A DNA stretch of 64,000 bases from an uncultured virus (IMG/VR IMGVR_UViG_3300023205_000110) (IMGVR_UViG_3300023205_000110), one strand, 5' to 3'. Positions 3,568 through 34,625 are shown, counted from the stretch's first letter. The notes: generated from the letters alone by a model not told the origin. Numbers and translations: made by a program.

Positions 3568-3621
3568 TTAAATTTAATGATTAGCTTGGAACCGCTACGA
3601 GTGCTACGCACTCTTCGCTAT

Positions 3622-3734
3622 ACTCCCCGTAGAGGATGGAATGGTAGTTGTGCTAGTAATATTAGTATAGTTATTAATAATAATGATTATATTGATTGAA
3701 TGAATACTAGTCTATTCCATCCTCTACGGGGAGT
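3622..3734. repeat. perfect 21-bp inverted repeat formed by two copies of the dispersed motif around a 71-bp AT-rich spacer
   Basis: 3622-3642 actccccgtagaggatggaat is the reverse complement of 3714-3734 attccatcctctacggggagt. Confidence 0.95.
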
Positions 3735-3794
3735 TGAGCGTAGCGAAGCGGAGCGTTCTACTAATCCTTAAACTTATAGTCGTTGGCATGACTG

Positions 3795-3840
3795 AAACCT
3801 CGGTAGCTAAGCTAGTCTTACTACTGAGGTTTATTTTTAT
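3795..3840 (+). terminator. intrinsic terminator
   Basis: Stem aaacctcggtag / ctactgaggttt followed by atttttat. Confidence 0.65.
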
Positions 3841-3870
3841 CTTATTATTAAACTTAAATATATTATAATT

Positions 3871-4053
3871 ATGGTTGCATTTATTGTTCTTCTTGGAATT
3901 ATATTTGGTGGTGTTAAATTATTAGCTGTTGCTAATAATATTAGTGATAGTGAAGCTATGGATAAGTATAGTGGAAAACTATTTGTTATTGGTATTATAG
4001 TTTTTGTTATTCTTATGTGTGTTATTGGTAATAATGATGATGGTTTTAATTAA
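3871..4053 (+). CDS. small two-TM membrane protein
   Basis: 60 aa with two hydrophobic segments; AT-rich leader typical of Bacteroidota genes. Confidence 0.6.
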   Translation: MVAFIVLLGIIFGGVKLLAVANNISDSEAMDKYSGKLFVIGIIVFVILMCVIGNNDDGFN

Positions 4054-4208
4054 GATATTGCTATTATTAATAATCATATAGGCTATGCGCCTACGCACAA
4101 AGGTTGCACCTTTGATTGGCTTATAGAATAGACTAGATATTCGTAGTCGTTAAAGTGCTGATAATCAGCATAAAAGCTATGTTAAATCAACACCCGTAGT
4201 ATGACTGA

Positions 4209-4243
4209 TACAAAGATTAGTAGAACTAGTACAAAGATTAGTA
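4209..4243 (+). repeat. 14-bp direct repeat, 21-bp period (iteron-like)
   Basis: tacaaagattagta at 4209-4222 and 4230-4243, just upstream of repL. Confidence 0.75.
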
Positions 4244-4264
4244 TAATTTTTTATTCTATTAACA

Positions 4265-4292
4265 TTTGATATAGTTATATTTTTTATCTTTG
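4265..4292 (+). promoter_or_regulatory. Bacteroidota sigma-A-type promoter for repL
   Basis: TTTG at 4265-4268 and TATCTTTG (TAnnTTTG) at 4285-4292, 20 nt before the ATG. Confidence 0.5.
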
Positions 4293-4312
4293 GAATATAA
4301 AATTATATTCTT

Positions 4313-4879
4313 ATGCCTACATTTAAATCTATTAGTAAAAGTAATAAACCTAATAATAGTATAGTTAATTATGCTATTAATGATGTTAATACAGTAGCTA
4401 TTGTAACAAAAGATGGTGAAATTATTGATAAGAAAGATGTTCTTGTCATGTATGCTGATTCTAAAAGTCATAAACAACTTATTGATGAACAAAAGAAAAG
4501 ATTATATTTTAAAGTGTTTATTGATACTTTAGGTAATATTTATAATCTTACTAATAATGAAAAAAATGTTTTATTTTATATTAATAGTCATGTTCTTTTA
4601 ACAAGACAAAAACCAGATAAAACTAAACTTTATTTTTCAGTTAATGCTATGTTTTATGATGATTGTGAAGAAGAAACTAAAGTTCCAAAGCCATCTATAA
4701 AATCAGCATTATCTAGTCTTAAAGATAAAGGATTTATTAATCATTATAAAGATAAAGAGGATAAATGTGTTAAAGGTTGCTATGTTGCTAATCCTAAATA
4801 TATTTATAGTGGTACTCCTGAAGATTATGTTAATGATTGCTTTGAACTTCAAACTAAAGGTATTCTTGCATTAATATAA
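4313..4879 (+). CDS. repL: RepL-like plasmid replication protein (winged HTH)
   Basis: TKDGEII N-terminus, YFKVF..., HTH KPSIKSALSSLKDKGFI, G.YVANPKYIYSG; position matches my recollection of crAssphage RepL. Confidence 0.7.
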   Translation: MPTFKSISKSNKPNNSIVNYAINDVNTVAIVTKDGEIIDKKDVLVMYADSKSHKQLIDEQKKRLYFKVFIDTLGNIYNLTNNEKNVLFYINSHVLLTRQKPDKTKLYFSVNAMFYDDCEEETKVPKPSIKSALSSLKDKGFINHYKDKEDKCVKGCYVANPKYIYSGTPEDYVNDCFELQTKGILALI

Positions 4880-4880
4880 A

Positions 4881-4932
4881 ATAAAAGGGCTTGTCTAGGT
4901 AGTGATACCATAGGCAAGCCCTTATTTTTTTT
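4881..4932. terminator. bidirectional intrinsic terminator between the convergent gene blocks
   Basis: Stem aagggcttgtcta / taggcaagccctt, with an A-tract before and a T-tract after. Confidence 0.85.
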
Positions 4933-4950
4933 ACTAGATTCAAGTCCAGT

Positions 4951-10900: not shown

Positions 10901-13900
10901 TGACTAAAATTACGTTTAATCCAATCAACTTTCTGAGCAGGAGTAAGTCTAGCAAATACATCAATTTCAGTTTGTGTAGGCTCAAATATATTTTTAACTA
11001 CAACATCATCTGTTTTAATATTAACTAATGTACCACTAACTCTACCAACTTCTAAAGCTCTAGATTGTCCAGTGCCATATTCTTTAATATATTTAGGATG
11101 AACAAAATCCCCATTAACAATAGTAACAGGTAAATTAAGATAAGAACTACCGTTATTACCTACTTCTAGTTTATTAATAAGATAATCTTTATAATCATTA
11201 TATAACTTTTCAGTCATTATTCCACCTTTAGTCCATTCTGCTATTCTATATACATAATCAATAAATACAGGATTAGCAGTTTCAAATACTTGTTGAGTAG
11301 CTTTAACACTAAGAGCAGTACTCATTTGTAAAAATGCAGCTAAACTAGGATAACTACTTTTAGATATATCAGATTTAATAAATGCATTTATACCACCACT
11401 AATATCAGGAAATACACTCTCTAACAGCAAGGTTTGACCCCCCGTAGAGTATGGAGCATAAATATTACTATTTTCAATAACAGTTCTAGCATCTCTAAAT
11501 ACTTTATCACTAGCATAAAAACTTTGTTTAGCACCATATTTATCAGCACTAAGAATATTAAGATTATTACTTATATCCTGTCCGATTGAGTTTAGCCGAT
11601 TGAATTGTGCTAGAACATAAAGGTCAAATAAAGCCTGCTGAATGCCATTCATTTCCCCTCTAAGACGAGATTTATATGCGTCTGATGAAAATATAAGGTC
11701 TGGTGATGAAAATGCGTCAGAAACGCTTAAATTGAATAATTTCTTGAAAGTTTCGCCATAACTTTTATCAATAGTTTCAATTAGCTTTTTACGTCCAGCA
11801 AAATTAACTTTTTCACCAAAACCAAGATTATGAGCAACTTCTCTAATAGCTTCAGTAAGCGGATTTTTAGTACCTTCTGCAAGAACACTATTAGTTTCTT
11901 TCCATTTACGAACTAGTATATCAATAGCAGGTTGCCACATAAATCCAATAGCAGTATCATAATTACTTCCAAAGTCAACAATAGTTTTGAAAGCATTAAA
12001 TGTATAAGTATTTTCATTATGTATAGCCCCCTCTTTCATAACATCGAGAATATGAGCAGTAGTCTGAGAACTATAAGGATTAATCAAATAGCCATCAACA
12101 TTCTTATCATCTCCAGACCAACCAAAATTTTTATGAGTAATACGAATATGTTTATTACCAATAGTTTCAACATTTTCTTTACCATATCTATTAACAGCTT
12201 CTTGCTCACTAATCACATCAGTAGTGTACATAACTTTAATACCTTCGCTATGATTAGCTTTAATAACATTACCAATACTCATAAAAGTATCTCTATTAAC
12301 ACTGATACCTTTAAGTTTAATACCAGAAGTAGCAGCATCAAACCAATCAAGTTGAGTAAAGAAATCACTAGGAGCAACAGTTGTTTTATTAGCACCAACT
12401 ATTTCTGCATAAGTTTCATTAGCTTCTTTGACATTTTCAAAGTTAGAAGTAGTAGTATTTTCTTCAAATGCAGCAGGATTATTAAGTATATCAATAAATG
12501 ATTGAATAATAGCATTAGTTCTAGCAGCTTGACTACTTGTATCCTCCACGGGGAGTTTCAAGTATGATTCGTAAGACTTAAGTCCACCATCATTAGCAAT
12601 TTTTTCAACAACTTTAAGATTGCCATTATAACCTTCAAGAGTAGCATTAATAGCATCTTCGCTATTTTTTAAAGAAGCTCTAATATTACCTTGTTTATTA
12701 TAAGTCTTACCAAGAATTTTACGACTAGCTTTATCTACATTATCTTTAACATAATTAATATATCCTACTTCATCTTTAGTATATCTGGCATGAGTAATTT
12801 CAGTTGGAATACCTTTAACAAGATTAAATGTTTTAGACATACCATAAACACTATCAACGTCAAAGTCAGAACCAGTTTGAGTAACCCATTCATCAGGAAC
12901 AACAACAGTACTACCATAAGCATCTGGAAGAAACTCTTTAACATACATAATACATATAGATTGTTTACCTTCAGTAGGAATACGATAACCAATCATAGTA
13001 CGTAAGCTATCAGGAACTTGTTCAATATTTAATCCTTTAAGTTTACTACTCCATCTAGGAAGTTTAATTTCAGTATAATAAACAGGAGTGCCATCAACTT
13101 CTCCAATCTTTTTATATTGAAGTTTACTATCCGTTTGAGTTTGTTTATCAACTTTAAATCCAAAATCAGATAGCTGAGCAGCGTGCCAACCACTAATAAG
13201 TTGTCTAGTAATATTAGTATTAAAATAACTATTAGCAATACTTTCAAGTTTACTATTAATATTAGATAAAAATAAAGGAAGATTATTAAATCCAGCACTA
13301 TCTAAATCGAAAAACTCAAGAAGAGCTTTTTCAACTCCTTGTTGTTGAGCATTTTCTTTAAATCTATCAAAGAATACAAAACGATTAAGATTTTTAATAG
13401 TACCATTAGAATTTAAATCAATATGACCATTATCATCTAATCCAATACCAAGTTCAGCACAAGTTTTTTCAAAACTATTTCTAATATTAGCTACATAGTT
13501 ATTAAATACTTTACTCTTAAGGTCATTAAGTTCAGTTCGATTAGGAAGATTATCAAGCATTTTCTTCATAATCTGAATAGCAGCTTTATTACTAGCATCA
13601 ACCATATGTTGAGGAACTTCTTGCTGACGATAAAGATAATTATAACTAAATAGTTCAGAATTATCAAATACATTATTATCAAATTCTTTAAGAGCTTCAT
13701 CAGTTAAAACACCATCGTTATTCCAAAGTGTCATTCTATTATGTTGTGCAACTTTAACAGTTTCAACAGTATTAATTTGATGAACACCTCTATTAGTCAT
13801 TATATTATAAACTTTTTCAAGTTCTGTTCCTTTAATAAGTTTAGGAATAAGAACAAACTCAGCGTTCTTTACTTGTCTAGGAACTTCAATACCAACAGTA

Positions 13901-16900
13901 GTATCATAATATAAATCATAATAGAAATTCTTTTGAATTTGAACTTTATTAGCAAATTTAGTCCAATCAATTTTATCTATTGGAGTATCATCTGTAAGAC
14001 TTTGAATAAGTCTAGCATATTTATCTAATTCACCAGCAGCAGTAATACGACGAATCCATTCTTCAAGAGTAATATAAGATTGAGCATCATTAGTATTAAC
14101 TTCTCCTTTAAACGGTTCTAGTATTCTTTCTCTGTCTTTTTTATCAAGTCCAGCTTTTTTAAGTTGGTCATCAAGTCTATCAATAACAACTTTATCAGAA
14201 GCTTTAAAAGTATTATAAATGGTAACACCCCTAAATTTATCTTGAAGAACTACTTTTTTACGTTTAGTAACTCCATTAACAGTATAAGGAACAGTAACAG
14301 CATTACCTTTAATAGTTATATCATATAAATCAGTAGCTATATCTAAATCATTTTTAGTAAAATCAGTATTACCAAAAGGATTACCACTAGCTTGTACTTC
14401 TTTAATACGTTTTAGAATAGCTTGACCATTCTTATAAAAACTTTGGTCACCACCATACATATCGTACATACTATCTCTAACAAGATAATCATTAACTAGA
14501 AATTCAGCTAAAGATTCATTATTAATCCTATCATCAATAAATGTACCATATTTATTTTTAAGTTCTTTATAACCATTAGTTATATATTCATTTAACCAAT
14601 TAGCAACAGCATCTTCAAGAGCAACACGTTGTTCTGCATTAAGAACTACTTGATTATTAACATAGCTAAGTCCACGTGTAGACCCCCCGTAGAGGATGTC
14701 AATAGTCTTACCATACCCAATTAGTTCATTAAATGCTCCATTACTATTAGGAGTAATTTTACTAACTAAACGTTTAAAACTAAATACTCTACCAGCTAAA
14801 ACTTTGTGCCCATCTTTAGTAATAAATACATTACCTTTTCCATCTTTATGATATTGATTATAAAAATGTTCAGGTTTATTATTATAAATATTACTAAATT
14901 CAAAATCTCCATTAGTTAAAATAGGATTACCATTAGCATTAGTCTTAAACATTACATTAACAGCTTGAGCCATATTAGTAAGTTCTTGAATAGCTATATT
15001 ATAATACTGTTTAAATAATGGATGTTCTCTATTTATAATTTTAGTTCCATCTTCTAATTGACTTCGTAATCCATTAAGACTATATCTAGGAGCAGTAATA
15101 GTAAAGTTTTTAGGAGCATCACTAGGTATAGGAAGTAAATAATTAGCAGTAGGAGTTTCAGAATTATTAATATCAGTCATAAATAATCCCATAGCAGTAA
15201 TTAAATAATCACCGTCACTCATACTACGATATAAGTCATTATTATTATTATCTAATTCACTAATACCATTAAGAAGAGAAGTTTTAAACATACTACGAGC
15301 ATATTCAGTAAGTTTAGGAGTTCCATTTCCAACTCTTCTAAACAATCCATAATTAATTATATTACCATTACTATCTCTATGTTCAAGAAGTAAATTACTA
15401 TAATCATATTGATGACTAGCAAACTTTTGTTTAGCATAAGCTTCAACCATAGCGTTTTGCTCTTCAACAGTAGATTTATCATCATTGATTATTTTAGCAA
15501 TATTAGTAATAAAACTTCTATTAATAACATCAGAACTTAAATTACCTTCGGGATTACGAGAATTAAGTTCAACAGGAATATAAATAATATCTTTAAAAAC
15601 ATCAGCCATTTGATATATAATAGAAGTATCACCTCTATTAATAAAACTATCAGGCATTTTAGTTTCTTTATCCTTTTTAAGCGCTTCTACATATTTATTA
15701 TAATTTTCAACTGTACGATTAATAACATTGGCAAAATTAATAAGATTATTAGCCATAGCTACACGACCAATCTTAGCAATAGCTAAATTAAAACTAGCTT
15801 GATTAATATCTGGAAATATTTCTTTAAAAGCATCATATAAATAAAGATTAGCATGAGGAGTATTTTTATATCTATCATATATACGAAACTTTTCACGAGC
15901 AGTAGGAACACGATTAGTAATAATATTATTCTTAACATTATTATAAAAAGTATTCTGTAAAATAGTACGAGAATCAGTATTAGGATTAGTTACACGAGCA
16001 CGAACATAACTATTACCATTAGAATCAGTTTGAATATAAGTTTCAATTTTAGATATAATAGGTTTATTAAACACCATCATATACTTATTAGCAAATACTT
16101 TATTTTTGCTAAGTAAATCATGTAATTGAATCAAACATTCACAATTTGGAACAGTTTCAGATATACGTTTAAGACTAGCTATAAAATTATCTACATTACT
16201 AGTATCAGCACTAGCATATAATATTTTAGATAAATAATTAGCATCAGAAAAAGTAACAACTCCTAATTCATTATTAGTATCAAAAGGATAACTTCCATTA
16301 TCAAGTTGAGAAGCAGCAGTAAGTTTAGGTAAACTTGCAAGATGATATTTAATAATTTCTTCTACGTGTTTATTAAAATCTTTAACTTCACCAATACTTA
16401 AATTCCAAAGTTGAGTCATCAAATCAATACCATCATCTATACTATTTTCATCACCTTCAGTAGAAGTTTCATCAAGATAACCGCCTAATTCTTCATAATC
16501 AGTAGTTTGATATAACTCATCTCGTTTAATAAGTTTAGCTACATTTTTATTATTAAAAAGAGCTTCATTAAATTCAGTATTAGTTAAAGAACGAAGTAAT
16601 GCACCATAATTAAAATCTTGAGCATCACCATATTTACGAAGAAATGCACCAAGACCATTAATTTTAGTAGCAGGATTTGGATTATTAATAAAACTATTAA
16701 GTTCATTATTTTTAGCTTCATCACTTCCAGCTAATTTCTTAGCGCGTTTAAGTCCAGCATTAATAACAGTTTCATTAGTACGTTTTTTAATTTCATTAAA
16801 ATTTAATGGAGCACCATTATATAGAAAATTAAAACTAAGTTTATTCATAATATCAGCCATATAAGTAATAGCTGTATCTCTAGCTTTAATTGTACTAAAC

Positions 16901-17163: not shown

Positions 17164-17200
17164 AAGTTTATATTTAAGTTTAAATTCATTAATAGTAATA

Positions 17201-17247
17201 CCTCTATGACTAATGTAAAGTAAAATTTTATTACATCGTCATAGAGG
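17201..17247 (-). promoter_or_regulatory. long hairpin upstream of the RNAP start (terminator, attenuator or processing site)
   Basis: cctctatgac (17201-17210) pairs with gtcatagagg (17238-17247), with inner atgtaa/ttacat pairing. Confidence 0.55.
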
Positions 17248-20200: not shown

Positions 20201-23164
20201 TAAACTACCTCCTGTAAGACCATCAATAATATTATTAACTATATCAGCAGCTTCTGTTTGTTCAAATCCAGCTTGACTAAGTTTATCAATAAAAGACTGT
20301 CTAGCATTAAGTAAATCACTACTAGTAGATTCATGTCCTAAAGAATCTTCTAAATCAGCAATACTTTCATAAACTAAATCAGTACCTATTTGACCACGTT
20401 CAAAATCATCATCTGGAAGAGTATTATTAACTTCAGATTTAGGAGTACTAATAGGTTCTTGAGAAATTGGTTGTTCAGTTTGAGATTGAGGTTGTTCAGT
20501 ATTAGTAGGCTCACTAGGAACCGCTTCGCTTCGCTCCGCTATACTCCCCGTGGAGGATGGAGATGAGTTAGTATCATCTACATCAGTTTCATTAACTTCA
20601 TTAACATCAGGATTAACAGGAGCAACTTCCTCTTTAGGAGTATTATTAACATCGTTTTCAATTTCTGCAATTTCAGCTAATTGTTCTAATGTAGTTTTAA
20701 GATGTTCATTACCTTTAGAACTTAAATCAAGTGCAGCATAAGCATCTCTAATAACTTTATCTATATTAGGTTTATTACCATTATTAGCATCTTTAATAAC
20801 AGAATTAACATAATCTTTACCATATTGTTTATAAGCATTACGTAAATCGTCCATAACTTTATTAACAATCTTTTTACGACTATTATCAAAGAAGTTATTA
20901 AGATAAGTTATACGAGATTTAATATTATCATCAGATAGATTAAGTTGATTTTTATTAACTTCAACATTAATCTCAGCATTAACAACTTCTGCTAAATCTT
21001 TAAATACTTCATTATATTGTTTTTGAAGTTGAATAGCTGATTGAACATCATTTTTATTTTCAATATCAATAGGAATATAAAGTTTATTAATAGCATCTAA
21101 TCGCTCATTTAATTGAGCAATACGTTCTTGTTTAACAGAATTATTAATTGCAGCGTTATCTTGAATAGTTTTAATATCTCTTTGAATACTATCAATAATA
21201 TGTTGATAAATACCATTCTTAGCAGAATTAATATCAACATCTTCAATATGATTATTTGTAATATCTTGATTTAAAACATCATTAGCCCAATTAAGAAGAT
21301 TATTATAATTTTCTTGACGATTACGAGCATGAACCATTTGGGTAGCTATAATACGACCAACTTCAAATCCGCCACCAAGTCTATTAACTTTATTTAAAGT
21401 AGTATTATATTCATTTTTAAGATTATTAATTTCAGTTTTAAATCTATTAATAAGTTCATTACTATCTTGTTGTTGTAATCCAAGTTTATTAGTAATACTA
21501 TCATTAAATTCTTTACTATTAATAGAACTTTCAAGAAGTCCTAAATTACCAGCGTTCATAGAATTAATAATAATATTATCCATATATTCTTTTTCAGCTA
21601 TATTACGAAGTTCTTCTTCAGTACCAGTAATAATATCTGGATTAACCTGTTGACCATTTTCATCAGTAATAGTTATAAATGGATTTTTACCATTAGCAAT
21701 ACTATTAAGTCTTTCTTGATATGCTTGAAAAGTAGCAGTACGACCAAGAATTTCGTTTTCTCTTTGTTTTTCGGCAGAAGTCCAATCTTTATCAAGACGT
21801 TTATTAATAAACTCTCCAGCTTTATTCATAACACTACTAAAAGTAACACCACCAAGAGCACCCCAAAATGCTTGTTCCCATAACATTGGGTCTTGAAGAT
21901 AATCTTTAATAGTTTGTTGAGGAATATCTTTATCAAATACTTTTTTACCATTATATAAACCATCTTGACTAGCTATATAATTAATAGCTTCTTCAACCCC
22001 TTCTGTCCATTCAGCTCTAACACCATGAAGAATATCATTACCTATATCTTTTAATGTACTAGTAATAGCTTGTTTAGTAGTTTTATTACTTAAAGCATTA
22101 GTAATTGCAGCAGCATCATCAATATTACTATTAAATGCAATATTTAAATTTCTAAGTCTGGAACTAGTTGTATTACCACTTAAAGCATTTTTCCATAAGT
22201 TCTTTAAACTATAAACTTGCCATACGTCAAAAAGAACATTAGCCCAATCTTCAGCAAAAGTAATATCAGCACTATTTTTAGCAATATCTTTAGCTACTTC
22301 TTCATCAGACATATCTTTATATTTAGGATTATTATTATAAAACTCTTCTCTTTGTTTATCATTCATATTAGCAAGTTGAGTTTTAGAATAATCTTCAATA
22401 TCATTATAAGTTTGTCTAGCTTCTTGATAATTTTCAAGATAACGAGAAGGAACTCCAATAGCAGTAGCTTCTGCTATTCTACCAGTAATGGCTCTACTCT
22501 TTTGAGTCATATTAATAGCATTAGCCATTTTATTAGCTAATTTATTAAACTTTATACCTTTACCTAATAAAGAAACACCTTTAGCAAGACCAGTACTAGG
22601 AACCATAAGAGTTAAAGAACTAGCTATACTAGGAGCATTGCTAGCCCACCAAGCAAAATCTCCAATATCAAAAGCAGCATTAGGATTTTCTCTATATATA
22701 GCTAAACGCTCATTAATAGATTCTTTTAAAGATTCAAGTTCAGAACTTATTTCAGATTGATAATCATTAGGACTATTACTAACCATATTATAGAAAGCAT
22801 CAGCTAAATCTGCAAAACCAATAGCTGTTCCAACAGTAATTTCATTACCAATTTGCCCAATCATTCTTAATCCTTGTTCCCAATTACTTTGATTAACAGC
22901 ACGTTCTTTATCAAGTTTTTCTGGGTCATCAACAGGATTAACATAAACATCATAAGGAGCATATTTATCTATATCATATTGATTAAGATTATATGATTGT
23001 CCAGCAATACGACTAAATAAATGACCACGACCCCGGTCACTAATAGAAGTGCCGGGGTTGTAATCAACTAAAGTAGGAGGCTGTATAGCCCCCTTTTTAG
23101 TTTTAGGATTATATTCAGGATTAGGTGTTTTATTACCACCTTGTAGAAACTTTAATACATCCAT
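17294..23164 (-). CDS. large ejected (cargo) protein with a C-terminal zincin-like domain
   Basis: 1956 aa; NAVY...IEL...ILHESLH (HExxH, ~17927-17947)...LEEFLVE; adjacent to the RNAP as in crAss-like phages. Confidence 0.75.
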   Translation of the reverse strand: MDVLKFLQGGNKTPNPEYNPKTKKGAIQPPTLVDYNPGTSISDRGRGHLFSRIAGQSYNLNQYDIDKYAPYDVYVNPVDDPEKLDKERAVNQSNWEQGLRMIGQIGNEITVGTAIGFADLADAFYNMVSNSPNDYQSEISSELESLKESINERLAIYRENPNAAFDIGDFAWWASNAPSIASSLTLMVPSTGLAKGVSLLGKGIKFNKLANKMANAINMTQKSRAITGRIAEATAIGVPSRYLENYQEARQTYNDIEDYSKTQLANMNDKQREEFYNNNPKYKDMSDEEVAKDIAKNSADITFAEDWANVLFDVWQVYSLKNLWKNALSGNTTSSRLRNLNIAFNSNIDDAAAITNALSNKTTKQAITSTLKDIGNDILHGVRAEWTEGVEEAINYIASQDGLYNGKKVFDKDIPQQTIKDYLQDPMLWEQAFWGALGGVTFSSVMNKAGEFINKRLDKDWTSAEKQRENEILGRTATFQAYQERLNSIANGKNPFITITDENGQQVNPDIITGTEEELRNIAEKEYMDNIIINSMNAGNLGLLESSINSKEFNDSITNKLGLQQQDSNELINRFKTEINNLKNEYNTTLNKVNRLGGGFEVGRIIATQMVHARNRQENYNNLLNWANDVLNQDITNNHIEDVDINSAKNGIYQHIIDSIQRDIKTIQDNAAINNSVKQERIAQLNERLDAINKLYIPIDIENKNDVQSAIQLQKQYNEVFKDLAEVVNAEINVEVNKNQLNLSDDNIKSRITYLNNFFDNSRKKIVNKVMDDLRNAYKQYGKDYVNSVIKDANNGNKPNIDKVIRDAYAALDLSSKGNEHLKTTLEQLAEIAEIENDVNNTPKEEVAPVNPDVNEVNETDVDDTNSSPSSTGSIAERSEAVPSEPTNTEQPQSQTEQPISQEPISTPKSEVNNTLPDDDFERGQIGTDLVYESIADLEDSLGHESTSSDLLNARQSFIDKLSQAGFEQTEAADIVNNIIDGLTGGSLYSSIQDDSTRRLLLNATYATVTGNERNIEAVMNDFANSIDSEGNTRGKIVNGKVYLSIGQLVEYIDSITGNKIIKNYLFNQIKNYLYASTNNQGKYRATDESTIKKLNARQFVQYVDGITKERLERLQVEHTNNVNLKYIVENENVKAFTSIKQGDYLEAIYNVKLKRIDIFANDTIIGYIGVPNIDKFGNYDMVNQGWKYNIHAENGQVISPFKDALISILDGDRFDEEFIGHLYELAVKEEVTNKELDTLFKEFEVKYPDIVKNFTTPVASFDLAGHLVNLTKYIFNQPYENSHEASINRWFNNLLNSYDQAITIVKGDFKGKIRAVNVKYGVLNTIDDANGEWNDVQETVVNYNEDVNKLGVVVQGQVYLNGESKPTIIENLTTNGMPVISIPSSDGTSLYAFCKQVPLNSNLLKSDVRRIINSIKNEVNNLCRDYISGKISFGELKQSLGDIFGNNKLINGDRNNGLQISINPTNIGFYVKGAHFNGKDYAFTINSDAGNYKRNIIINSPYVVNSAFKIGKSYGINASTIDELDNALRPVIDEMFNYAQFAISKDFINDSTKTNDKTNKYIYRENGKTIINIDDKTYSYNSYQDFIISNGLVRTKLANTNTNETAGNWQIDIHSKLDITYELEGRPPVEDGAIPEQLSEFMLDDTLNAINFNAFESAITAKNLTRGLKKYFANDQTAIDYINALQKIGILPKNIQVVDSITNNNGNQVNAVYHRDTDTIELNSSAIAGQRVYRVVNIILHESLHRQLYTKYNTEQALALVKPIYDKFKAWLDTQDDATKERLKPYLFENFNTSEALEEFLVESITSNALMTALNEIKYDNRKVNKRKTLFSRLLEVIADMLGIKINEDSLLAAARDAYKAIKKMPKESNQEAIQGTFQFEEETASTEQTENPNEDNSQDYNYNNDNLNDGLDMFSSVDDDIVSNMAELTSRLPIAQQSKFATLLDTGRISFSCM

Positions 23165-25739: not shown

Positions 25740-28303
25740 GATTGTTTTCCTCCAAGTTTTCTACGTTTACGAATAATAAATTCATCATAATCAACTCCAG
25801 CATCCCGCATAATTCTATCATCTACATTAGGAGCAGATGCTCTCATCGCACCAATAGTATTATTTAAAGCTTTACGATTTTCATATCTACTAATCATATC
25901 TTGAATACCAGCATTAATTCCACTAAATAAATTATTAATATTAGTTACTTTAGCTTCTCTAATACCATTATCAAATGCTGCTTTTCTATCTATATATTGA
26001 TTGTATTGTTGAGCATTAAATTGACGAACACTTTGTTGATTACGTCTATCTTGATTAATAAGATTAGTTTCTATATTTTCTTTATTACCATAAAGTTCAT
26101 TAGCAGCTTGGCCAGCAGCATTACGAACTCGTTGTTTACGAGCTAAACTTACACGACTACTAGCAGTATTAGAATCAATATCACGATAAGCCTCAAATTT
26201 ATCTTCTCTAATTCTATCAAGTTGAGGATTAATATTATATTTAGTTTTAAGTTTATTAGCACTAATAAGAGTAGGTTGACCTGGGCCTCTCATTTTATTA
26301 ATAGCTCTTCTACTAGCAAAATAGCTAGCTAAACTACCAGCTACATTACTGCCTAGTCCAATCCAATCAGCAGTAGTAAGATTTTTAAATTTACCTTGAC
26401 CTTTACCATCAAAAGATGTAGTTCCTTTAGCAGGAATATTAGTAGAAACAGGTAAAGTAGTAGGAATACTAGCTTCTACTTTAGGTAGATTACGATTATA
26501 AACAGTAATAGGAGGTGTTTTAGTAGGAATAGATTGAGTTGATTGACTTGACTTACTTCGTCCTCTACGGGGGGTCTTCCCGTTAGATTTAGTTTCAGAT
26601 AAACTTGGAATATTAGTATTATTTGTACTAATACCTTTGTTATTTCCATGACTCCAACCAGCTCTAACTAAACCACTAGTAATACCAGCACCATCTTCAA
26701 ATAAAGGAAGTCTGCGTTCTGCATAATATTGAGGACGACGATTACCATTATCAATATTAGATTTATTAGTATTAGTATTTGCATTATTATTTTTAGACCA
26801 TCTTCCATTTCTAAAAGTATAATCACTGCCAACAATAGTTTCACCTCTAGCAGATTTATTAATAGGATAAGCAGAAGTTCTATTAATAGTTCTATTAGTT
26901 ATAGGAACATAAGCTCCAATTTTTTCATCATATTCCCAAGTTCTTCCATGACGATTAATACGTTTTCCGCCAACAGCAAATTTATCGCGTAGACCCCCCG
27001 TAGAGGATTGAGAATGAATTAATCCATTCTTAACATTACCATTAATACTAACAACTAATCCAACATTACCTTTCTTTCTAAGTTCTGGATATTTATTATA
27101 AACTTTAGCTTTAACATCATTTCTACCATGTAATCCAGCTAATCTTAAAGCATCAACAGCATCTGCTTTTGTAGGAATAGGATAACTTCTATGTCCACCA
27201 GCAAAATCTTTTTTAGCTACACTAGGATAAGGTTTCTTTTTAGAACCATAGTCTTTATCTCTACTTAATCCACCCATAGCTTTTTTATTTTCATTTATAT
27301 TATTTTTATTTATATAATCAATAGTTCTAGGAAGATTACTACCATGTTTACCAATAGTTGTTCTATAAACTTCTTTAATTCCTTGATTAATCCAAGTATT
27401 ATCAATTTTATTAGCTAAATCATAAATCTTTTGTCTACCTAAATTAATAAAATTAGTAGCAGTTCTACCTATTCTAGAAGCTTTAGTTAGACCTTTAATA
27501 AATTTATAATTTCTATTACCAGCTATTGTAGGATAACCACCAATAATTATCGAACCACTTTCAGCGATTTGTCTTTTATATTCATCAGGTGCTTGATAAA
27601 TTTTACCACCTTCTTTATATTTAGTTCCATCATCATTAATTCTATTTCTATCTTTAAAATCTTCTTGAGCTTTAAATACTTTATTAGGATTAGCTCCACC
27701 CATAACTAATTTAGCAGGACTAGCACCATTAAGTATAGGCTGTGCAGAATAAACTTTAAGTTCATTACCATTAGTTTCAACTACTTCACCATCTTCTACT
27801 TCAATACCAGTTTTATCACTAGGACCAATATCAATACCACCTTGACTATGTTTTCTTCCATTCATATAAAAGAAATTATTACCAAGAGGTTGAGCAATAC
27901 CACCAGCAACTACATTTGGTACTTTACCACCAACAGCATATTGCTTTTGAGGAAGATTTTTTCCATTACTTCTAGGAGTTTGAATAATATTAAATGGAAA
28001 TGTTGGTCCAAGTTCATCATCACTAGGAAAAGATTCTTTATTAAAATCTTTAACATAATTAATAAGTCTACCAGCAGTATTATTCATTAATTTTTCTCTA
28101 TTATCTTTAGATACTAAATTGTTTACACCATTATAGAGAAATTCATTACCAAGTCTTATTAAACCAGTAGATTTAGCAACTTTATCATAAGCTCCACCAA
28201 GTGGAGGAATACCATTTTGAATAAATCTTCCATTACGAGTAACATTACCTCTAAATGTACTAGGTAAATTACTTATATGAATAACTTTATCTTTTCTAGG
28301 CAT
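25730..28303 (-). CDS. virion cargo protein with a low-complexity middle and C-terminal TM/coiled coil
   Basis: 857 aa; GRKHSQGGIDI/EVEDGE motif, repeated [YFK]xxGG motifs, hydrophobic WIGLGSNVAGSLASYF. Confidence 0.6.
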   Translation of the reverse strand: MPRKDKVIHISNLPSTFRGNVTRNGRFIQNGIPPLGGAYDKVAKSTGLIRLGNEFLYNGVNNLVSKDNREKLMNNTAGRLINYVKDFNKESFPSDDELGPTFPFNIIQTPRSNGKNLPQKQYAVGGKVPNVVAGGIAQPLGNNFFYMNGRKHSQGGIDIGPSDKTGIEVEDGEVVETNGNELKVYSAQPILNGASPAKLVMGGANPNKVFKAQEDFKDRNRINDDGTKYKEGGKIYQAPDEYKRQIAESGSIIIGGYPTIAGNRNYKFIKGLTKASRIGRTATNFINLGRQKIYDLANKIDNTWINQGIKEVYRTTIGKHGSNLPRTIDYINKNNINENKKAMGGLSRDKDYGSKKKPYPSVAKKDFAGGHRSYPIPTKADAVDALRLAGLHGRNDVKAKVYNKYPELRKKGNVGLVVSINGNVKNGLIHSQSSTGGLRDKFAVGGKRINRHGRTWEYDEKIGAYVPITNRTINRTSAYPINKSARGETIVGSDYTFRNGRWSKNNNANTNTNKSNIDNGNRRPQYYAERRLPLFEDGAGITSGLVRAGWSHGNNKGISTNNTNIPSLSETKSNGKTPRRGRSKSSQSTQSIPTKTPPITVYNRNLPKVEASIPTTLPVSTNIPAKGTTSFDGKGQGKFKNLTTADWIGLGSNVAGSLASYFASRRAINKMRGPGQPTLISANKLKTKYNINPQLDRIREDKFEAYRDIDSNTASSRVSLARKQRVRNAAGQAANELYGNKENIETNLINQDRRNQQSVRQFNAQQYNQYIDRKAAFDNGIREAKVTNINNLFSGINAGIQDMISRYENRKALNNTIGAMRASAPNVDDRIMRDAGVDYDEFIIRKRRKLGGKQSCR

Positions 28304-32200: not shown

Positions 32201-33726
32201 AATATAGTATCACCAAATAATACTTGTCCACTAGTAAATACAGCATCTTCTGTAAATCCAGTTCCATTATAAACATAACAAGCTATTTTAACTGTACTAG
32301 GTAAAGTATAAACAGATTGATTATTTTCATATTTATAACTTGTAGGAATAATAAAACAATGACAAGCAAGATATTCTTTAAGATTATGACTACCTCTACT
32401 ACCTACTTTTATTTTAGCATTATAATTAATCTTTAAGTATTCATGTGCTGCAATACCTTGTATAACTGTATCATTAAATAAAGTTCTAAAAGTACGAAAA
32501 GGATATTGATTATTATTGAATACTTTATTAATATCTTTAATTTGCCAATCAGCAGTACCAGTAATTTGAAGGCTAGCCATTTTAAAATATGGACCTTTTT
32601 CACTAACTGCATTAACAGTGGTATAATCATTATAATAAGCATTAACAGCTTTATTACGAAGTTTAATAGTAATATCTTTAACAGCCTCTTCTAATGTTTT
32701 ACCATTATTTAAAGTTCTATCATCGTTATCAGTTTTTTCATTATAATTAGCAATATATATTCTATTCTTATAATTAATGATATTACCAACATTATAATAA
32801 TTATAATAGTCAGTAGTTAAATCAGCAACATTATATTCAACAAGAACATCTCTACTAAATTTAAAAATATTATTATTTAAATCATCTGTTCTAAATGCTT
32901 GAGTACTATCTTTTTTACATACAATAAAACCAAGTTGATAAAGACCAGAACGACCTCCACTAATATTTATTTCAAAAGTTTGATTACATATATCTTTAGA
33001 ATCACTAAATGAATCGGTATTACCATAACAATAACCGTTTGGTTCATCTTTCGGTTCATAAACATTAGTTTTTCTAAAACAAACTTTATTAATAACTTGT
33101 GGAATTATAACATCATTAAAAATAGGAAATCCAATACTATACCATTTAGTATAATTAGTTTTATCTATCTTATATCTAATAAATATAAAATAAAATCCTT
33201 TATAAGCTCCACCACTAACATAATTTAAACCACTAATGGTATGTAAAGTTATTTGTGGAATAACAGATATTTCAGAATCAGGACGGTCAGAATCTAAATC
33301 AATATTAATAGTTTTAAGAGGAACATCAACAGAAGCATTACTTTCAGCAATAGCTATTATAAGATGATTTTTAACATTATAAGTATATGTTCCTTTAATC
33401 TTTCCACCATTATATTTCCAATTACTATTTACTCTATAACAATTATCAGCTTGTTCATTATATCTATAAATATAAGATTCATTAGAATCAGTATTAACAA
33501 TAAATAAAATAAGTTCAGTACTAGTTGGAATAACACCAACTATTTTAAAATTATTAATACCATCTTCATGAATAGAATTGGCAATTGCTTTACAATCTTC
33601 AAGCCCTTCTTCATTAACAATCATCCTATCATCATTACTCACTTTAACATTTTTAGCAGCAACTAATGAATAAGGTACACAATCACCCGGATGTTTATTA
33701 AGACTAAGTTTCTTTTGTATATTCAT
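29215..33726 (-). CDS. tail nozzle/muzzle protein (P22 gp10-like stabilisation protein)
   Basis: 1503-aa beta-rich ORF; SESE/WR.F..ENKG.ITNL..G-like C-terminal region; synteny upstream of the cargo genes. Confidence 0.7.
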   Translation of the reverse strand: MNIQKKLSLNKHPGDCVPYSLVAAKNVKVSNDDRMIVNEEGLEDCKAIANSIHEDGINNFKIVGVIPTSTELILFIVNTDSNESYIYRYNEQADNCYRVNSNWKYNGGKIKGTYTYNVKNHLIIAIAESNASVDVPLKTINIDLDSDRPDSEISVIPQITLHTISGLNYVSGGAYKGFYFIFIRYKIDKTNYTKWYSIGFPIFNDVIIPQVINKVCFRKTNVYEPKDEPNGYCYGNTDSFSDSKDICNQTFEINISGGRSGLYQLGFIVCKKDSTQAFRTDDLNNNIFKFSRDVLVEYNVADLTTDYYNYYNVGNIINYKNRIYIANYNEKTDNDDRTLNNGKTLEEAVKDITIKLRNKAVNAYYNDYTTVNAVSEKGPYFKMASLQITGTADWQIKDINKVFNNNQYPFRTFRTLFNDTVIQGIAAHEYLKINYNAKIKVGSRGSHNLKEYLACHCFIIPTSYKYENNQSVYTLPSTVKIACYVYNGTGFTEDAVFTSGQVLFGDTIFDIDNCKMRIAHSTIEPSYDFNERKKNDTLIPGEVYNFFIHFVDKYGDASRGYKLSNKDKYINNIVNDGSHCTIITFNWNNQGNGNIPYWAVISGDIPISTISSNIKRYIANHKIVVYTAEPINNPTTNILLNSSGELEATNKDELYTLISNYFIDYQDKDKYNDLYVYQVINSGSYTPCSNQVIGAIGVDNEAKFGYYENINSDELFRIPDLIFDAEAIGDEHTRGFIYNMNNTFNKFYIRANIDTTLWNQIKELGYVGWFISYEKVEPITRYTGLLTRKDYCNIASNVTWQDGSWGTKPGFVANNFTSDKCYLYSGRFDIDDSIKYDFNIIRIDGKCKFEPYKEKHDVVDMVVNTTYPYSYNMPVIGVISRNEYKPINNYKLVVADSVTDSRAGKGTALEMDDYKELLLDAETMFLATVLNCTKNIYTSKEKELVRLNDVCYNGGTYSIEHGYNGRMTYDGVLIYNDNGVIMNEGNYKLYTPTNNQYYYSGDEPCWFDIPFNVYIQFPLYSDKFFESKRFNNEPSKIAFSIKEDTDKKSVAFGTFVEPKNSVDLFKDPIGNVDQYVPKLLTQYRNDIINITRFDKTIRRSNVIQDESEVNAWRIFPIEGYKNITENKGSITNLVGIGYYLLVHTQHSMFMFDISAALKTRDENVQLYQPDAFEVDYKEVFTSDKGYGGLQDDLAYTVGEFGYIFYNDDFHKLYQFDDGQLKIMDEDIKLWLDKYHPNKVRFAHNKFNNRILIKFDYTYDNINPNTKESIIESHNEVISFNYKIGSFISLHDYYFNNAWSTKTKCYFQTEHNDDRLNCPLHVFTHEYNYGRFNTHMGDDSRSLYLVSKQEVGDEPILVHNSYIDIMVNESYELIKFLEFIKYKVHKIYIPIYSDNINNPVDLREHPYAGDILRIFNEDNDTDDIDINIDKLNEFNKYKKPWYELTQYNFNYFRNAIKEHPNTVSDKLRRVYGNYFVVRFIFNNSDNKRIEFESLECAQTQFRKL

Positions 33727-33728
33727 AA

Positions 33729-34625
33729 TTATTTAGGAAAAGTAAAGTTATAAAAGAACTCATTCCAACCACTATCATCATCACTTTGTTCATCTAATAG
33801 AATACTAGTCTTAATATCTTTCTTCATACTTTCCCATAGATAGAAAGGATTAGTTCCATATTGACTAGCAGAAAGATTAAACACAGGATGTTTATATCCT
33901 CTCATAAGCATACGAGCCATACAATAATAAGTAAGACCTTGAATTAATTTACCGTTAGCAGGTATAACAGGAATCTCACAATGATAATTATCACTATATT
34001 GAGTTTCAATATCTTTATAAACAACTGTTATACAAGTATCATTAAAATTAAGTTCAATAGTATTACCTCCAATAAGAATATAATTATGATTTGACTTATC
34101 ATATCCTCCACGGGGGGTCTGACAATGAGAATGAACTTCATGCTGACATCTTGGACATTCAGTATTATTATGAACTGTATAAACAACAGGATTACATCCT
34201 ACTTTACCAGTATCAATAACTTCTCTAGTTCTAGAACCATTAGGACAACAATCATAAGGCATACCAAGATAGTCTTTATTAGTAGCACGCTCCGGACTTT
34301 CGTCCTCCGCTTGACCCCCCGTAGAGGAGGGAGCAGATTCAGTATCACCACATCTATATTTACTAGTATCAGCTCTAGGTACTTCACAACCATTACTATC
34401 ATATACTTTAAGACCGTCATCAATAAGACAACATTTACTTTTAGCTATCTTATTAATGACGGTTAGTTTCATTTTCTTATCAACTTTACGAAGAACTTTA
34501 AGTTCATTCATAGCATCAACACACCAAGCAGGAACTCTAGGAATCCAATCACTTCCATCAGGATTGAAATCATTATCAAGTTTACCAATTATATGTTCTA
34601 TCGTAATCGTTTTATTATTTGCCAT
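33729..34625 (-). CDS. tail tubular/ring protein (P22 gp4-like)
   Basis: Start reassigned to ATG 34625 (MANNKTITIEHII), 4 nt after the upstream stop; Y.L.G..IELNF....I.V.Y..I...EIPVIP motif. Confidence 0.6.
   Translation of the reverse strand: MANNKTITIEHIIGKLDNDFNPDGSDWIPRVPAWCVDAMNELKVLRKVDKKMKLTVINKIAKSKCCLIDDGLKVYDSNGCEVPRADTSKYRCGDTESAPSSTGGQAEDESPERATNKDYLGMPYDCCPNGSRTREVIDTGKVGCNPVVYTVHNNTECPRCQHEVHSHCQTPRGGYDKSNHNYILIGGNTIELNFNDTCITVVYKDIETQYSDNYHCEIPVIPANGKLIQGLTYYCMARMLMRGYKHPVFNLSASQYGTNPFYLWESMKKDIKTSILLDEQSDDDSGWNEFFYNFTFPK

Follow-up and report, generated by a model that had tools for sequence, protein, structure and literature searches.

The window, i.e., the whole stretch of 64,000 nucleotides analysed, comes from p-crAssphage (Carjivirus communis), the prototype human-gut crAssphage, whose 97-kb genome BK010471 was used as the reference. 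It contains 15 exact and two one-mismatch copies of the 12-nt core motif TCCTCYACGGGG, compared with 0.03 expected, and the reference contains 32 copies scattered genome-wide. Seven copies of the whole reference genome, four of them in the window, are followed by a nested hairpin and are designated long forms (A to D in the window). The remaining copies, 13 of 17 in the window and 25 of 32 in the reference, have no such hairpin.

Three short forms are located in the 4070-aa ORF at 4951-17163, which matches the crAss 'RNAP catalytic subunit' gene: 11440..11451 (minus strand, one mismatch in the window and exact in the reference), 12542..12553 (plus strand, antisense) and 14685..14696 (minus strand). 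Other short forms were found at 18270..18281, 26561..26572, 43656..43667 and 57916..57927 on the plus strand, and at 26996..27007, 43392..43403 (one mismatch), 53831..53842 (intergenic) and 60635..60646 on the minus strand. The copy at 34104..34115 (plus strand) is the convergent partner of long form D in the tail tubular protein gene, and Delmidovirus has the motif at the same place in another reading frame. Behind the intergenic copy at 39631..39642 (minus strand) there is a weaker hairpin of another kind (the GCC-GAATTT-GGC region), and this copy is not counted among the long forms.

The core motif is not palindromic. Its copies are evenly spaced within each strand (CV 0.31 and 0.50 versus 0.92 for random placement), but only for each strand separately and not for both strands pooled, which suggests a strand-reading process; the core word itself appears to be strand-read. 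In comparisons between genera, a copy was kept at the orthologous place in 20 of 39 cases, with the same orientation in all 20. The word occurs in five different frame/orientation contexts and is orientation-neutral overall with respect to the genes of the reference (19 sense and 13 antisense copies). The hairpin is an add-on to this core word, an older signal that is tiled evenly along each strand and common to other crAss genera.

The divergent pair A/B and the adjoining cassette

Long forms A and B face outward from an AT-rich spacer of 83 nt (3637..3719, 24% G+C). Arm A comprises the core motif TCCTCTACGGGG (3625..3636, minus strand) and hairpin A, GC/GAA/GAGTGC-GTA-GCACTC/GTA/GC (3594..3618, minus strand), which begins 6 nt 3' of the motif and is antisense to the adjoining plus-strand genes. 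Arm B comprises the core motif (3720..3731, plus strand), hairpin B (3738..3754, plus strand), which reads GCGTAGCGAAGCGGAGC, that is, (GCGNA)3GC or GC/GTA/GC-GAA-GC/GGA/GC, and a third module, a TACTAAT tail (3759..3765, plus strand). At the spacer there is also an inverted repeat, I1, with 30-nt arms that are 90% complementary. A terminator scan of 3300-4400 gave a single site, at 4094-4078, and none at A or B. The search of the whole window against Rfam 15 gave no matches at the gathering score; the sub-threshold matches were only miRNA-precursor-like ones to the long inverted repeat 3601-3750.

Downstream of the pair, a 188-aa ORF (4313..4879, plus strand) occupies the position that RepL (gp43) has in the reference. 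Most of its sequence bears no relation to RepL, and its predicted structure shows a winged-helix core. The A/B pair is kept in strains with RepL, without RepL or with another cassette. Judging from this genomic context, which can be considered established, the tagged pair appears to stand upstream of a swappable cassette of the initiator type. A second divergent pair, one arm of which is a long form, is located upstream of RepL gp88 in the reference, and a published study placed an origin there by an Ori-Finder prediction and nanopore coverage (PMC10983915).

Architecture and folding of the long forms

Long forms C and D are sense copies inside genes. The motif of C (20546..20557, minus strand) and hairpin C (20523..20539, minus strand), which reads GCGGAGCGAAGCGAAGC or GC/GGA/GC-GAA-GC/GAA/GC, lie in a 1956-aa ORF homologous to KP06_gp45. 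Hairpin C is translated there as AERSEA (...SIAERSEAV...), in agreement with the peptide IAERSEAV reported over this stretch in the initial annotation, and a strain variant, GAA to GGA, alters the residue and leaves the structure intact. The motif of D (34317..34328, minus strand) and hairpin D, GC/GGA/GGAC-GAAA-GTCC/GGA/GC (34289..34310, minus strand), lie in the tail tubular protein gene, a homologue of KP06_gp50; in three other genera the motif is kept at the corresponding place and the hairpin is absent.

The initial annotation had described hairpins at 3738-3754 (plus), 20523-20539 (minus), 3599-3613 (minus) and 34294-34305 (minus), all on the same side of the motif. All four were confirmed, and each lies 3' of a same-strand TCCTCYACGGGG (motifs at 3720+, 20546-, 3625- and 34317-). 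The hairpin type is indeed kept despite differing sequences, but it is better described as one nested architecture than as three hairpin types. A long form consists of the 12-nt core, a 6-nt spacer and a nested hairpin, all on the core-bearing strand, and in all four cases the hairpin follows the order GC / GNA / inner stem / GNA or GAAA loop / inner stem / GNA / GC, with a GNA or GAAA loop at its tip and a GNA x GNA internal loop between the stems. In all four window sites, 6 nt separate the G-run from the first GC of the hairpin; in the reference the spacer measures 6 nt in six of seven sites, and the remaining site, whose outer stem has 5 bp, has 4 nt. Read on the motif strand, all apical loops are GNA or GAAA; the complement would read TNC.

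A scan that ignored the motif (outer stem of at least 2 / GNA / inner stem of 2-7 closed by C-G / GNA or GNNA loop / GNA / outer stem) found four matches in the window and seven in BK010471, all of them at most 30 nt 3' of a motif, while 100 dinucleotide shuffles of the window averaged 0.01 matches and never exceeded 1. The heptamer GCGNAGC occurs eight times in the window, seven times within 60 nt 3' of a same-strand motif (0.13 expected) and never on the 5' side; in the reference, nine of ten occurrences are placed in this way 3' of a motif. The seven exact occurrences belong to three of the four window sites (3603, 3738-3748, 20523-20533), and the fourth site, D, has C-GAAA-G on a 4-bp stem, GGAC-GAAA-GTCC. 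No TIR or TSD, as in MITE or RPE-like inserts, was seen around the motif-hairpin units. At the level of sequence, the anatomy, the strand specificity and the DNA-type loops can be regarded as established, and they support the view that motif and hairpin make up a composite strand-specific unit, in which the hairpin invariably follows the motif on the 3' side of the same strand. What is new here is the GNA-hairpin module, together with its constant spacing and its position at divergent pairs linked to initiators.

By their sequence, the hairpins fall into the mini-hairpin DNA class of Hirao, d(GCGNAGC) / d(GCGNNAGC), in which a GNA or GNNA loop containing a sheared G.A pair is closed by two G-C pairs. 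The melting temperature of d(GCGNAGC) is given as 70-76 °C, the form being restricted to GNA triloops, and SSB is described as binding mini-hairpins poorly (PMC13037366). Nearest-neighbour folding of 51-57-nt stretches gave z from -1.6 to +1.0, i.e., no unusual stability, with models that contain no mini-hairpin bonus. The unusual stability claimed in the initial annotation is thus in line with the published melting data (PMC13037366) but not with generic folding, and the word 'stable' would have to rest on those d(GCGNAGC) data rather than on the folds computed here. The pentamer-repeat forms B and C have about 0 kcal/mol as DNA and -1.9 as RNA (z +0.2 to +0.4), while hairpins A and D as RNA reach -10.2 and -8.0 kcal/mol (z about -2.7), folding into precisely the nested structure. 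A function shared by all four is more readily imagined for DNA, because B and C have no predicted RNA fold.

The RNA folds of A and D would nevertheless suit an element that acts in the transcript, where the hairpin would terminate transcription, protect the 3' end or mark a processing site, in the manner of REP hairpins behind stop codons. Six of the seven reference long forms are sense to local genes, and two follow a stop codon by 18 and 21 nt (ref 6021 after gp11 and ref 93667 after gp84). In Diorhovirus cr3_1, a motif at 10885 is directly followed by a 14-bp hairpin and a T-run, and the arm-B hairpin in other genera, which has invariant G.U-type wobbles and is followed by a T-run, resembles an ordinary intrinsic terminator. 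The REP/BIME elements of enterobacteria are short GC-rich imperfect palindromes, intergenic and situated just after stop codons in either orientation. Unlike the long forms, REPs are not known to be attached to a separate conserved 12-nt word, to occur in ORFs or to be GNA-capped, and no RAYT-type transposase is evident in the phage. An RNA-level role seems unlikely, since hairpins B and C lack an RNA fold, and the C-G-closed GNA triloop is a DNA-specific stable form, the RNA analogue r(GCGAAAGC) melting at 39 °C (PMC13037366). In addition, a T-run directly after the stem is absent in all seven p-crAss hairpins, the strongest hairpin, A, runs antisense to the adjoining genes, two long forms are placed in the middle of long ORFs, where termination would be harmful, and the core word shows no preference for the sense orientation.

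Variation among strains and genera

The strain loci (IMG/VR) were gathered by the motif itself, and hairpin changes were scored among motif-bearing loci. Eleven distinct substitutions were found in the strain hairpins, six at the N of GNA, four in stems with the pair kept and one at a loop G, and none of the 11 breaks a pair. The N positions account for 22 of 148 positions and received six of the 11 substitutions. The four pair-keeping changes comprise one G-C to A-T double change, seen as the compensated variant GAGTAC-GAA-GTACTC of hairpin A, and two G.T wobbles, both of which read G.T on the motif strand. At the site upstream of RepL gp88, the apical hairpin is GAGC-GAA-GCTC, GGAC-GAAA-GTCC or GGC-GAA-GCC depending on the strain. 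Hairpin B is invariant in all 25 locus/record instances collected, a count that includes the same contig regions more than once. Stem covariation across strains had been proposed as a check on the hairpins, and a lack of compensatory conservation of the stems in relatives as a ground for rejecting them; with no pair-breaking change and three apical hairpins at one site, the hairpins are not refuted on this ground. Structure-preserving change in strains and relatives keeps the hairpins, and selection for the fold can be regarded as shown.

Gene conversion between copies could swap hairpins as well, mimicking N-only variation without selection at every site.

The hairpin lies outside the basic unit: most copies in the window and the reference lack it, and at orthologous sites in other genera the motif stands without it. 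Beside the motif, GCGNAGC was not found in four of the six genomes compared, so that the mini-hairpin is not needed for the function of the core word. In Diorhovirus cr3_1, the related hairpins GCAGGGC-GAA-GCCCTGC and GCAC-GA-GC-GAA-GC-GA-GTGC each follow a motif copy at a distance of 4 nt. Genomes cr11_1 and cr110_1 and contigs G003/G004 likewise have a divergent motif pair in the syntenic position, behind the homologues of gp40/gp41, with a 3' hairpin of 11-14 bp on each arm; these hairpins evolve by compensatory and wobble changes on the motif strand.

Some of this variation could be expected of by-products with little or no function of their own, produced by (GCGNA)n slippage, palindromic inserts through template switching and spread by gene conversion. 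In forms B and C the sequence is simply (GCGNA)3 repeated in tandem, and the hairpin is missing from the orthologous motif sites of other genera. One 22-nt hairpin is present at two sites in different strains (58699-58720 in the reference and upstream of gp88 in loci L014, L146, L211, L238 and L268), which shows exchange between copies. The shared tails point to common descent: TACTAAT occurs at most 30 nt after the hairpin in four of the seven reference sites (per-site expectation about 0.016), and GGGTCnnAGC is common to three of the seven. Such an origin is quite improbable, and so is the idea that the array is simply tolerated only in intergenic DNA and disordered protein loops. A neutral process leaves unexplained the constant GNA/GAAA apical loops closed by C-G, the fixed 6-nt spacer, the lack of pair-breaking substitutions and the hairpins on both arms of the syntenic pair in five other genomes, as well as the independent appearance, in an unrelated genus, of hairpins with a GAA cap behind the same motif.

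Possible reading of the long forms on single-stranded DNA

The preferred, though tentative, reading is that the long forms are signals for initiation on single-stranded DNA, comparable to ssiA/ssiB of RSF1010 or to the G4 origin. The four structures of the window are its share of the seven long forms, which are versions of a strand-specific DNA word spread over the whole crAss-phage genome. A hairpin-tagged word suggests reading on single-stranded DNA, perhaps to start DNA copying; we infer that the structure acts as DNA and not as RNA, that the process would be the priming of DNA synthesis and who its reader may be. The initial annotation had spoken of an ssDNA recognition unit for a primase or a virion RNA polymerase. 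The composite strand-specific unit and its DNA-type loop agree with the recognition unit, but the absence of the hairpin from most motif copies does not. A point against the primase option is that no primase, Toprim or AEP family was found in the 31 reference proteins scanned (E <= 0.001-0.01).

In RSF1010, ssiA and ssiB are inverted relative to each other and lie on opposite strands. The A/B pair resembles these signals of RSF1010/R1162, which are used by the primase RepB': there are two signals on opposite strands, inverted, by an AT-rich stretch and an initiator gene, with A (3594-3636, minus) and B (3720-3754, plus) placed around the 83-nt spacer upstream of 4313-4879. The RSF1010 signal likewise combines a conserved single-stranded sequence with a hairpin capped by a GAA mini-hairpin (CCGAAGG in ssiA), and this hairpin is described as supporting recognition of the neighbouring bases (PMC13037366). 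The systems differ in that there is no sequence similarity and no RepB'-like primase among the 31 reference proteins scanned, some 30 additional copies of the crAss core are spread through genes on both strands, and the crAss hairpins have the GNA x GNA internal loop. The same source reports this mini-hairpin type in the G4, St-1 and alpha3 priming origins, in RSF1010 ssiA and in the N4 P2 promoter; in the complementary-strand origins of G4, St-1 and alpha3, where DnaG works on SSB-coated ssDNA, mini-hairpins of the GCGAAAGC or GCGTTAGC type are found where primase starts (PMC13037366). Those are, however, single origins of ssDNA phages served by a host primase, whereas the crAss genome is a 97-kb dsDNA with seven tagged sites.

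The hairpin would act in single-stranded or supercoil-extruded DNA. A compact, SSB-resistant mini-hairpin could leave the adjacent core exposed and correctly placed for the reading enzyme. An untagged copy would be readable only once the DNA is single-stranded, and the hairpin would make an entry site able to fire from the duplex. At the A/B pair (3594-3754), with its arms directed outward on opposite strands around the AT-rich spacer and beside the initiator-type cassette, synthesis primed on the two hairpin strands would proceed inward over the spacer and would thus be bidirectional, as it is at ssiA/ssiB of RSF1010.

Some observations speak against a DNA-initiation signal: the hairpins do not stand out in standard DNA energy models, most long forms are in the sense orientation, and A and D fold well as RNA.

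The virion RNA polymerase option would make the long forms N4-type hairpin promoters, from which an injected enzyme would drive early mRNAs. The N4 early promoters P1-P3 also have a small hairpin with a 3-nt GGA or GAA loop, a sheared G.A and a GC-rich heptamer (PMC4496689, PMC13037366); their hairpins are reported to be extruded from supercoiled DNA and spared by SSB, with one strand read, and N4 injects its own RNAP (PMC4496689). The virion RNAP of the crAss phage phi14:2 transcribes single-stranded and not double-stranded DNA (10.1101/2020.03.07.982082). With the hairpin strand as the template, arm A would give a transcript into gp42 and the initiator cassette, and the long form at ref 95864 a transcript into gp87. 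Yet the fit is poor and this option is very doubtful. The transcript would be antisense to local genes at five of the seven reference sites and sense only at two, 28077- and 95864+, and long forms also lie in late structural genes, in contrast to the three N4 promoters, which belong to the early region and all precede early genes on the template strand. The N4 vRNAP is T7-like, the crAss enzyme two-barrel and QDE-1-like, and the account of phi14:2 early transcripts in that report describes them as having no common upstream motif (10.1101/2020.03.07.982082). The N4 stems have 5-7 bp and no internal loops, while the crAss apical stems have 2, 2, 4 and 6 bp, with GTA, GAA and GAAA loops and an internal loop.

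Linear phage-plasmids have scattered centromere sites. A duplex-DNA site with a cruciform, bound by a partition/centromere protein, a nickase, a recombinase or an IHF/HU-like virion protein and with the hairpins as a distorted target at selected sites, would suit the dispersed copies conserved in position, the IHF-like proteins encoded by the phage and its reported phage-plasmid nature (PMC10983915), but it is most unlikely with a core that is not palindromic, spacing that is even per strand and not for both strands together, GNA loops on one strand only and wobble variants that favour one strand.

Nested hairpins attached to a strand-specific word

The four hairpins described in the initial annotation were found at the coordinates assigned to them, of which 3599-3613 and 34294-34305 are the inner parts of A and D; in full the structures are A (3594-3618, minus), B (3738-3754, plus), C (20523-20539, minus) and D (34289-34310, minus). 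The peptide reported at hairpin C reads SSTGSIAERSEAV on the minus strand, as proposed. It had also been stated that the sequences differ and the hairpin type is kept. The type is indeed kept, but the three hairpin types are better described as one nested architecture, common to all four: outer GC, GNA, inner stem, GNA or GAAA loop, inner stem, GNA, outer GC. The inner stems are closed by C-G and comprise 2, 2, 4 or 6 bp in the four window structures. In each of the four copies, 6 nt separate the G-run of the adjacent motif, the strand-specific 12-mer TCCTCYACGGGG, from the first GC.

A scan for this architecture, blind to the motif, revealed exactly four instances in the window and seven in the reference p-crAssphage genome, all of them no more than 30 nt 3' of a motif; shuffling the window 100 times gave a mean of 0.01, and the same scan of five other crAss genomes gave none. 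The word GCGNAGC occurs eight times in the window, seven times within 60 nt 3' of a same-strand motif (0.13 expected) and never on the 5' side of a motif; nine of its ten reference copies likewise lie within 60 nt 3' of a same-strand motif. Long forms, comprising motif, spacer and nested hairpin, make up only 7 of the 32 reference motif copies (6021+, 28077-, 28172+, 44953-, 58727-, 93667- and 95864+). The signal itself is older, and the hairpin is an accessory to it.

Nearest-neighbour folding fails to single out these elements. With 45-nt flanks, DNA parameters and a 1% tail it flagged 1 of 17 window and 2 of 32 reference copies, and the whole elements folded with z from -1.6 to +1.0. Generic folding was dropped as a hairpin detector, being uninformative because the GNA bonus is missing from the model. 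For the pentamer-repeat forms (GCGNA)3GC practically no fold is predicted, whether as DNA or as RNA; as RNA, hairpins A and D fold well. The unusual stability ascribed to the hairpins was not reproduced by folding and derives from published measurements: the review of Kimoto and Hirao (PMC13037366) gives d(GCGNAGC) a Tm of 70-76 C and r(GCGAAAGC) a Tm of 39 C, and reserves stability of the d(GCGNAGC) type for GNA triloops.

Strain variants of all seven reference sites were collected from two IMG/VR scans and compared with the majority form; instance counts include contigs fetched by both scans, so that distinct variants alone are counted here. Variation across strains had been suggested as a check on the structure, and it proved to be structure-preserving, with 11 distinct substitutions and not one broken pair. 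Six fall on the N of GNA, a class comprising 22 of 148 hairpin positions, four lie in stems with pairing retained, and one affects a loop G. Hairpin A shows a double change of G-C to A-T (GAGTGC-GTA-GCACTC to GAGTAC-GAA-GTACTC), and two stem substitutions produce G.T wobbles on the motif strand. At the two sites that lie in coding sequence, a change of N also changes the encoded residue; therefore, it is the fold and not the peptide that is kept. The site upstream of the RepL gene gp88 carries three apical hairpins depending on the strain, GAGC-GAA-GCTC, GGAC-GAAA-GTCC and GGC-GAA-GCC. The 22-nt hairpin D is also present there, which indicates that exchange between copies clearly happens. The "N-only" pattern may therefore partly reflect conversion between copies instead of point mutations having been filtered.

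Distribution and conservation of the core motif

The window has a G+C content of 29% and is about 97% identical to Carjivirus communis (p-crAssphage, BK010471.1), its positions corresponding to reference positions minus approximately 24,450 in the stretches compared. Nearly all large ORFs from 4951 on lie on the minus strand, the first being the 4070-aa virion RNAP gene. A tRNA search of the window found none, and an Rfam search gave no family at gathering score, with sub-threshold matches to the inverted repeat only. The motif is present in 15 exact and two one-mismatch copies (0.03 expected), in 32 copies in the reference (31 exact), and in 17 to 28 copies in each of the five other crAss-like genomes, namely Delmidovirus cr11_1 and cr110_1, Diorhovirus cr3_1 and two IMG/VR contigs. 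Read backwards as a control, the 12-mer has no copies in these five genomes.

The window copies are read in five frame and orientation contexts (PSSTGG, ILYGGS, HPLQGV, PPVED and TPRGG), and therefore the motif does not represent a peptide signal. Both motif copies of the tail tubular protein gene occupy orthologous places in Delmidovirus, where the proteins are only 44-49% identical, and one of them is read there in a different frame (SPVED versus TPRGG). When all 21 coding reference copies were compared, a motif was found within 60 nt of the orthologous place in 20 of the 39 comparisons having a homologue, and its orientation to the gene was unchanged in all 20. The spacing on each strand is more even than random (CV 0.31 and 0.50 versus about 0.92, P <= 0.006); with both strands pooled it is less even than per strand.

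A role as a host signal was rejected, as none of the matches listed in a bacterial-genome scan (80 of at least 133 stretches) is titled Bacteroides or Phocaeicola. Among the matches listed, multi-hit contigs are crAssphage-sized or small contaminant contigs, and single matches lie in high-GC genomes at chance level. Contigs of 97-98 kb or multi-hit sets of small contigs (L328-L330, L353-L356, L393 and others) appear under Clostridia, Mycoplasma, Chitinophaga silvisoli and Atlantibacter assemblies and are probably binning or contamination artefacts.

At window positions 6082, 10633, 11440, 43392 and 47618 the motif is degraded by one or two substitutions relative to the same BK010471 sites, four of which are exact; the counterpart of 10633 (reference 35040) has one mismatch. 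This indicates that single copies can decay between strains about 97% alike. The convergent pair, at 34104-34115 and 34317-34328 in the window and at 582-593 and 749-760 in locus L181, flanks the most variable, indel-rich part of the tail tubular protein. The 135-kb IMG/VR contig G003 has its 32 motif copies (28 exact, four one-mismatch) confined to the first 91 kb, with none in the remaining 44 kb, so that this contig may be a crAss genome joined to other DNA.

Assembled Logan contigs from four RNA-library runs were placed on 2001-21500 and, being contigs, yielded no starts or ends. Contigs of several runs tend to break at or beside the motif (3729, 11412/11474, 14665/14735 and 20542/20570), for which strains differing at the Y position, or the repetition of the word, could be responsible, and no biological meaning is claimed for it. 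"Joints" and loose ends at motif sites were rejected as evidence of recombination, since they have short sides (20-23 nt) and are paralogous matches of the repeated word.

Divergent pairs, initiator-type cassettes and related genomes

The elements of hairpins A (3594-3636, minus) and B (3720-3754, plus) point outward, are separated by an 83-nt spacer of 24% G+C and together form an inverted repeat with 30-nt arms that are 90% complementary. Downstream of them follows a 60-aa ORF, behind which the reference has RepL gp43 (Pfam RepL, E 4e-9). The window strain carries an unrelated 188-aa ORF (4313-4879, plus) in place of gp43, the cassette stretch being 4064-4870; of this ORF only the last ~42 residues are shared with a RepL-bearing protein, P0010. 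MW067002 lacks the cassette (820 nt shorter) but has intact copies of both A and B. What lies downstream of the pair is a swappable cassette.

The 188-aa protein had no match in a tblastn search of 50,697 phage records or among PDB sequences, and its family matches, to Rep3_N, DnaD-like and TrmB, are all sub-threshold. The predicted structure (pLDDT 57.7) has a confident winged-helix core and MarR-like fold matches at TM ~0.3. On this evidence the protein was rejected as a proven initiator, and it is classed here simply as a putative winged-helix DNA-binding protein.

Upstream of the other RepL, gp88, there is a further divergent pair, formed by 95745- and the hairpin-bearing 95864+; an origin is placed there by Ori-Finder prediction and by nanopore coverage (PMC10983915). 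Between the tagged motif and the gp88 start (BK010471 95.9-96.13 kb, ~45,900-46,130 of its part L180) there are two direct copies of a ~25-nt ATACCATACATGGAATAGATTTCG-like unit, candidate iterons or operator. The accessible text of PMC10983915 contains neither "hairpin" nor "inverted repeat". A sigma-70-type promoter scan of 3300-4400 gave fewer sites than shuffles. The reference TDR is listed as 1853 bp, a length without coordinates, in Table S6 of PMC6712665; distances between neighbouring motifs near the predicted end (2078 and 2380) do not match it and gave no link between motif and terminal repeat.

Two long forms are present in Diorhovirus cr3_1, both with a gap of 4 nt behind the motif: GCAGGGC-GAA-GCCCTGC at 44003+ and GCAC-GA-GC-GAA-GC-GA-GTGC at 77144+. 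The former is downstream of the gp41 homologue and antisense to it, like hairpin A in p-crAssphage. Synteny of the latter with reference 6021+ was rejected, since the gp14 helicase homologue of cr3_1 is located at 63049-64470 and does not adjoin 77144.

The two Delmidovirus genomes and the IMG/VR contigs G003 and G004 have no GCGNAGC beside a motif. All four possess a divergent motif pair at the place syntenic with A/B, just downstream of the gp40/gp41 homologues, with an 11-14 bp hairpin 26-36 nt after each arm. The B-equivalent arm differs between the two lineages in three stem pairs, altered on both sides, and has two invariant G.T wobbles; the A-equivalent arm has two pairs changed to wobbles. 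A T-run comes after the B-type hairpin, which may be no more than a terminator. The arm-A hairpin is composed of GGCAAGATTGGCA words, of which G004 has two in direct and one in inverted orientation, and these repeats are absent from p-crAssphage. The arm-A hairpin is followed by a conserved non-coding block, CCATGTATAACATATAAAA (L197 4316-4400, L209 1344-1428, L187 17254-17338 and L201 17745-17828). Another IMG/VR contig (L089, near reference 59.05-59.15 kb) has an insertion between the gp50 and gp51 region that contains one more divergent motif pair, with a degenerate pentamer array, GTGGAGCGCAGCGGAAC, after one arm.

Possible reading of the tagged copies

Three points suggest that the structure is formed by the motif strand as single-stranded DNA: every loop is GNA on this strand, where the complement would be TNC; the wobble variants are compatible with the motif strand only; and half of the four window hairpins are understandable only if the DNA-specific mini-hairpin stability applies. 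According to PMC13037366, priming origins of G4, St-1 and alpha3 use exactly this type of mini-hairpin, as does ssiA of RSF1010 with its RepB' primase. The N4 virion-RNAP promoter has the same type, and its hairpin extrudes from supercoiled DNA and resists SSB (PMC4496689 and PMC13037366).

On the reading preferred here, although it is held at less than even odds, a tag would allow a copy of the strand-read word to be opened and used while the DNA is still duplex. Priming at A/B, on both hairpin strands, would then proceed inward over the spacer and beyond, resulting in bidirectional synthesis. A further-reaching version, which we consider rather improbable, has the GNA tags serve, via hairpin extrusion, as entry points into duplex DNA for a crAss-specific enzyme reading ssDNA. 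This enzyme could be a primase that has escaped recognition, or the QDE-1-like virion RNA polymerase in a priming role, and the ~30 untagged copies, tiled evenly on each strand, would be its restart sites for complementary-strand synthesis. If so, crAss phages would replicate largely by strand displacement from priming signals coded in sequence within genes. The primase suggested as the reader in the initial annotation found no backing in a Pfam search for primase, Toprim and AEP families, which gave none in 31 reference proteins (the BK010471 replication block, L179, and gp83-86, L180).

A role of the hairpins at the RNA level is a serious rival of the entry-point reading. Six of the seven long forms are sense, two stand closely after stop codons and A and D have the good RNA folds mentioned; the loops, wobbles and DNA-type stability point to the single-stranded DNA of the motif strand. 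An N4-type promoter for the virion RNAP, the other reader initially suggested, fits less well: the crAss enzyme does transcribe ssDNA, but with the hairpin strand as template only two of seven transcripts would be sense, the enzyme belongs to a different family from that of N4, and the accessible part of the same preprint (10.1101/2020.03.07.982082) reports no common early promoter motif for phi14:2.

The hairpin class itself is already known. That it is attached at fixed spacing to a genome-wide crAss word, and that it stands at initiator-linked divergent pairs, has apparently not been described: a search of published full texts for four spellings of the 12-mer, which does not extend to logos in figures, returned unrelated papers only, and among the papers listed in a search on crAssphage repeats, motifs and hairpins nothing was relevant, the passages of one being concerned with terminal repeats and methylation motifs.

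No virus of the human gut is more abundant than crAssphage, and we know of no description of how its transcription and DNA replication start or of the promoters of its injected RNA polymerase. The tagged copies give a first structural hint of how the word is read, on one strand and as ssDNA, through a hairpin type for which priming origins and the N4 promoter are the examples known to date. Two concrete candidate origins next to initiator cassettes are also indicated by the tagged copies, which make the question of initiation approachable with short oligonucleotides and the culture system now available. The helicase annotated in the replication block and gp83-86 of BK010471 is of the SF1 (PIF1/RecD-like) type.
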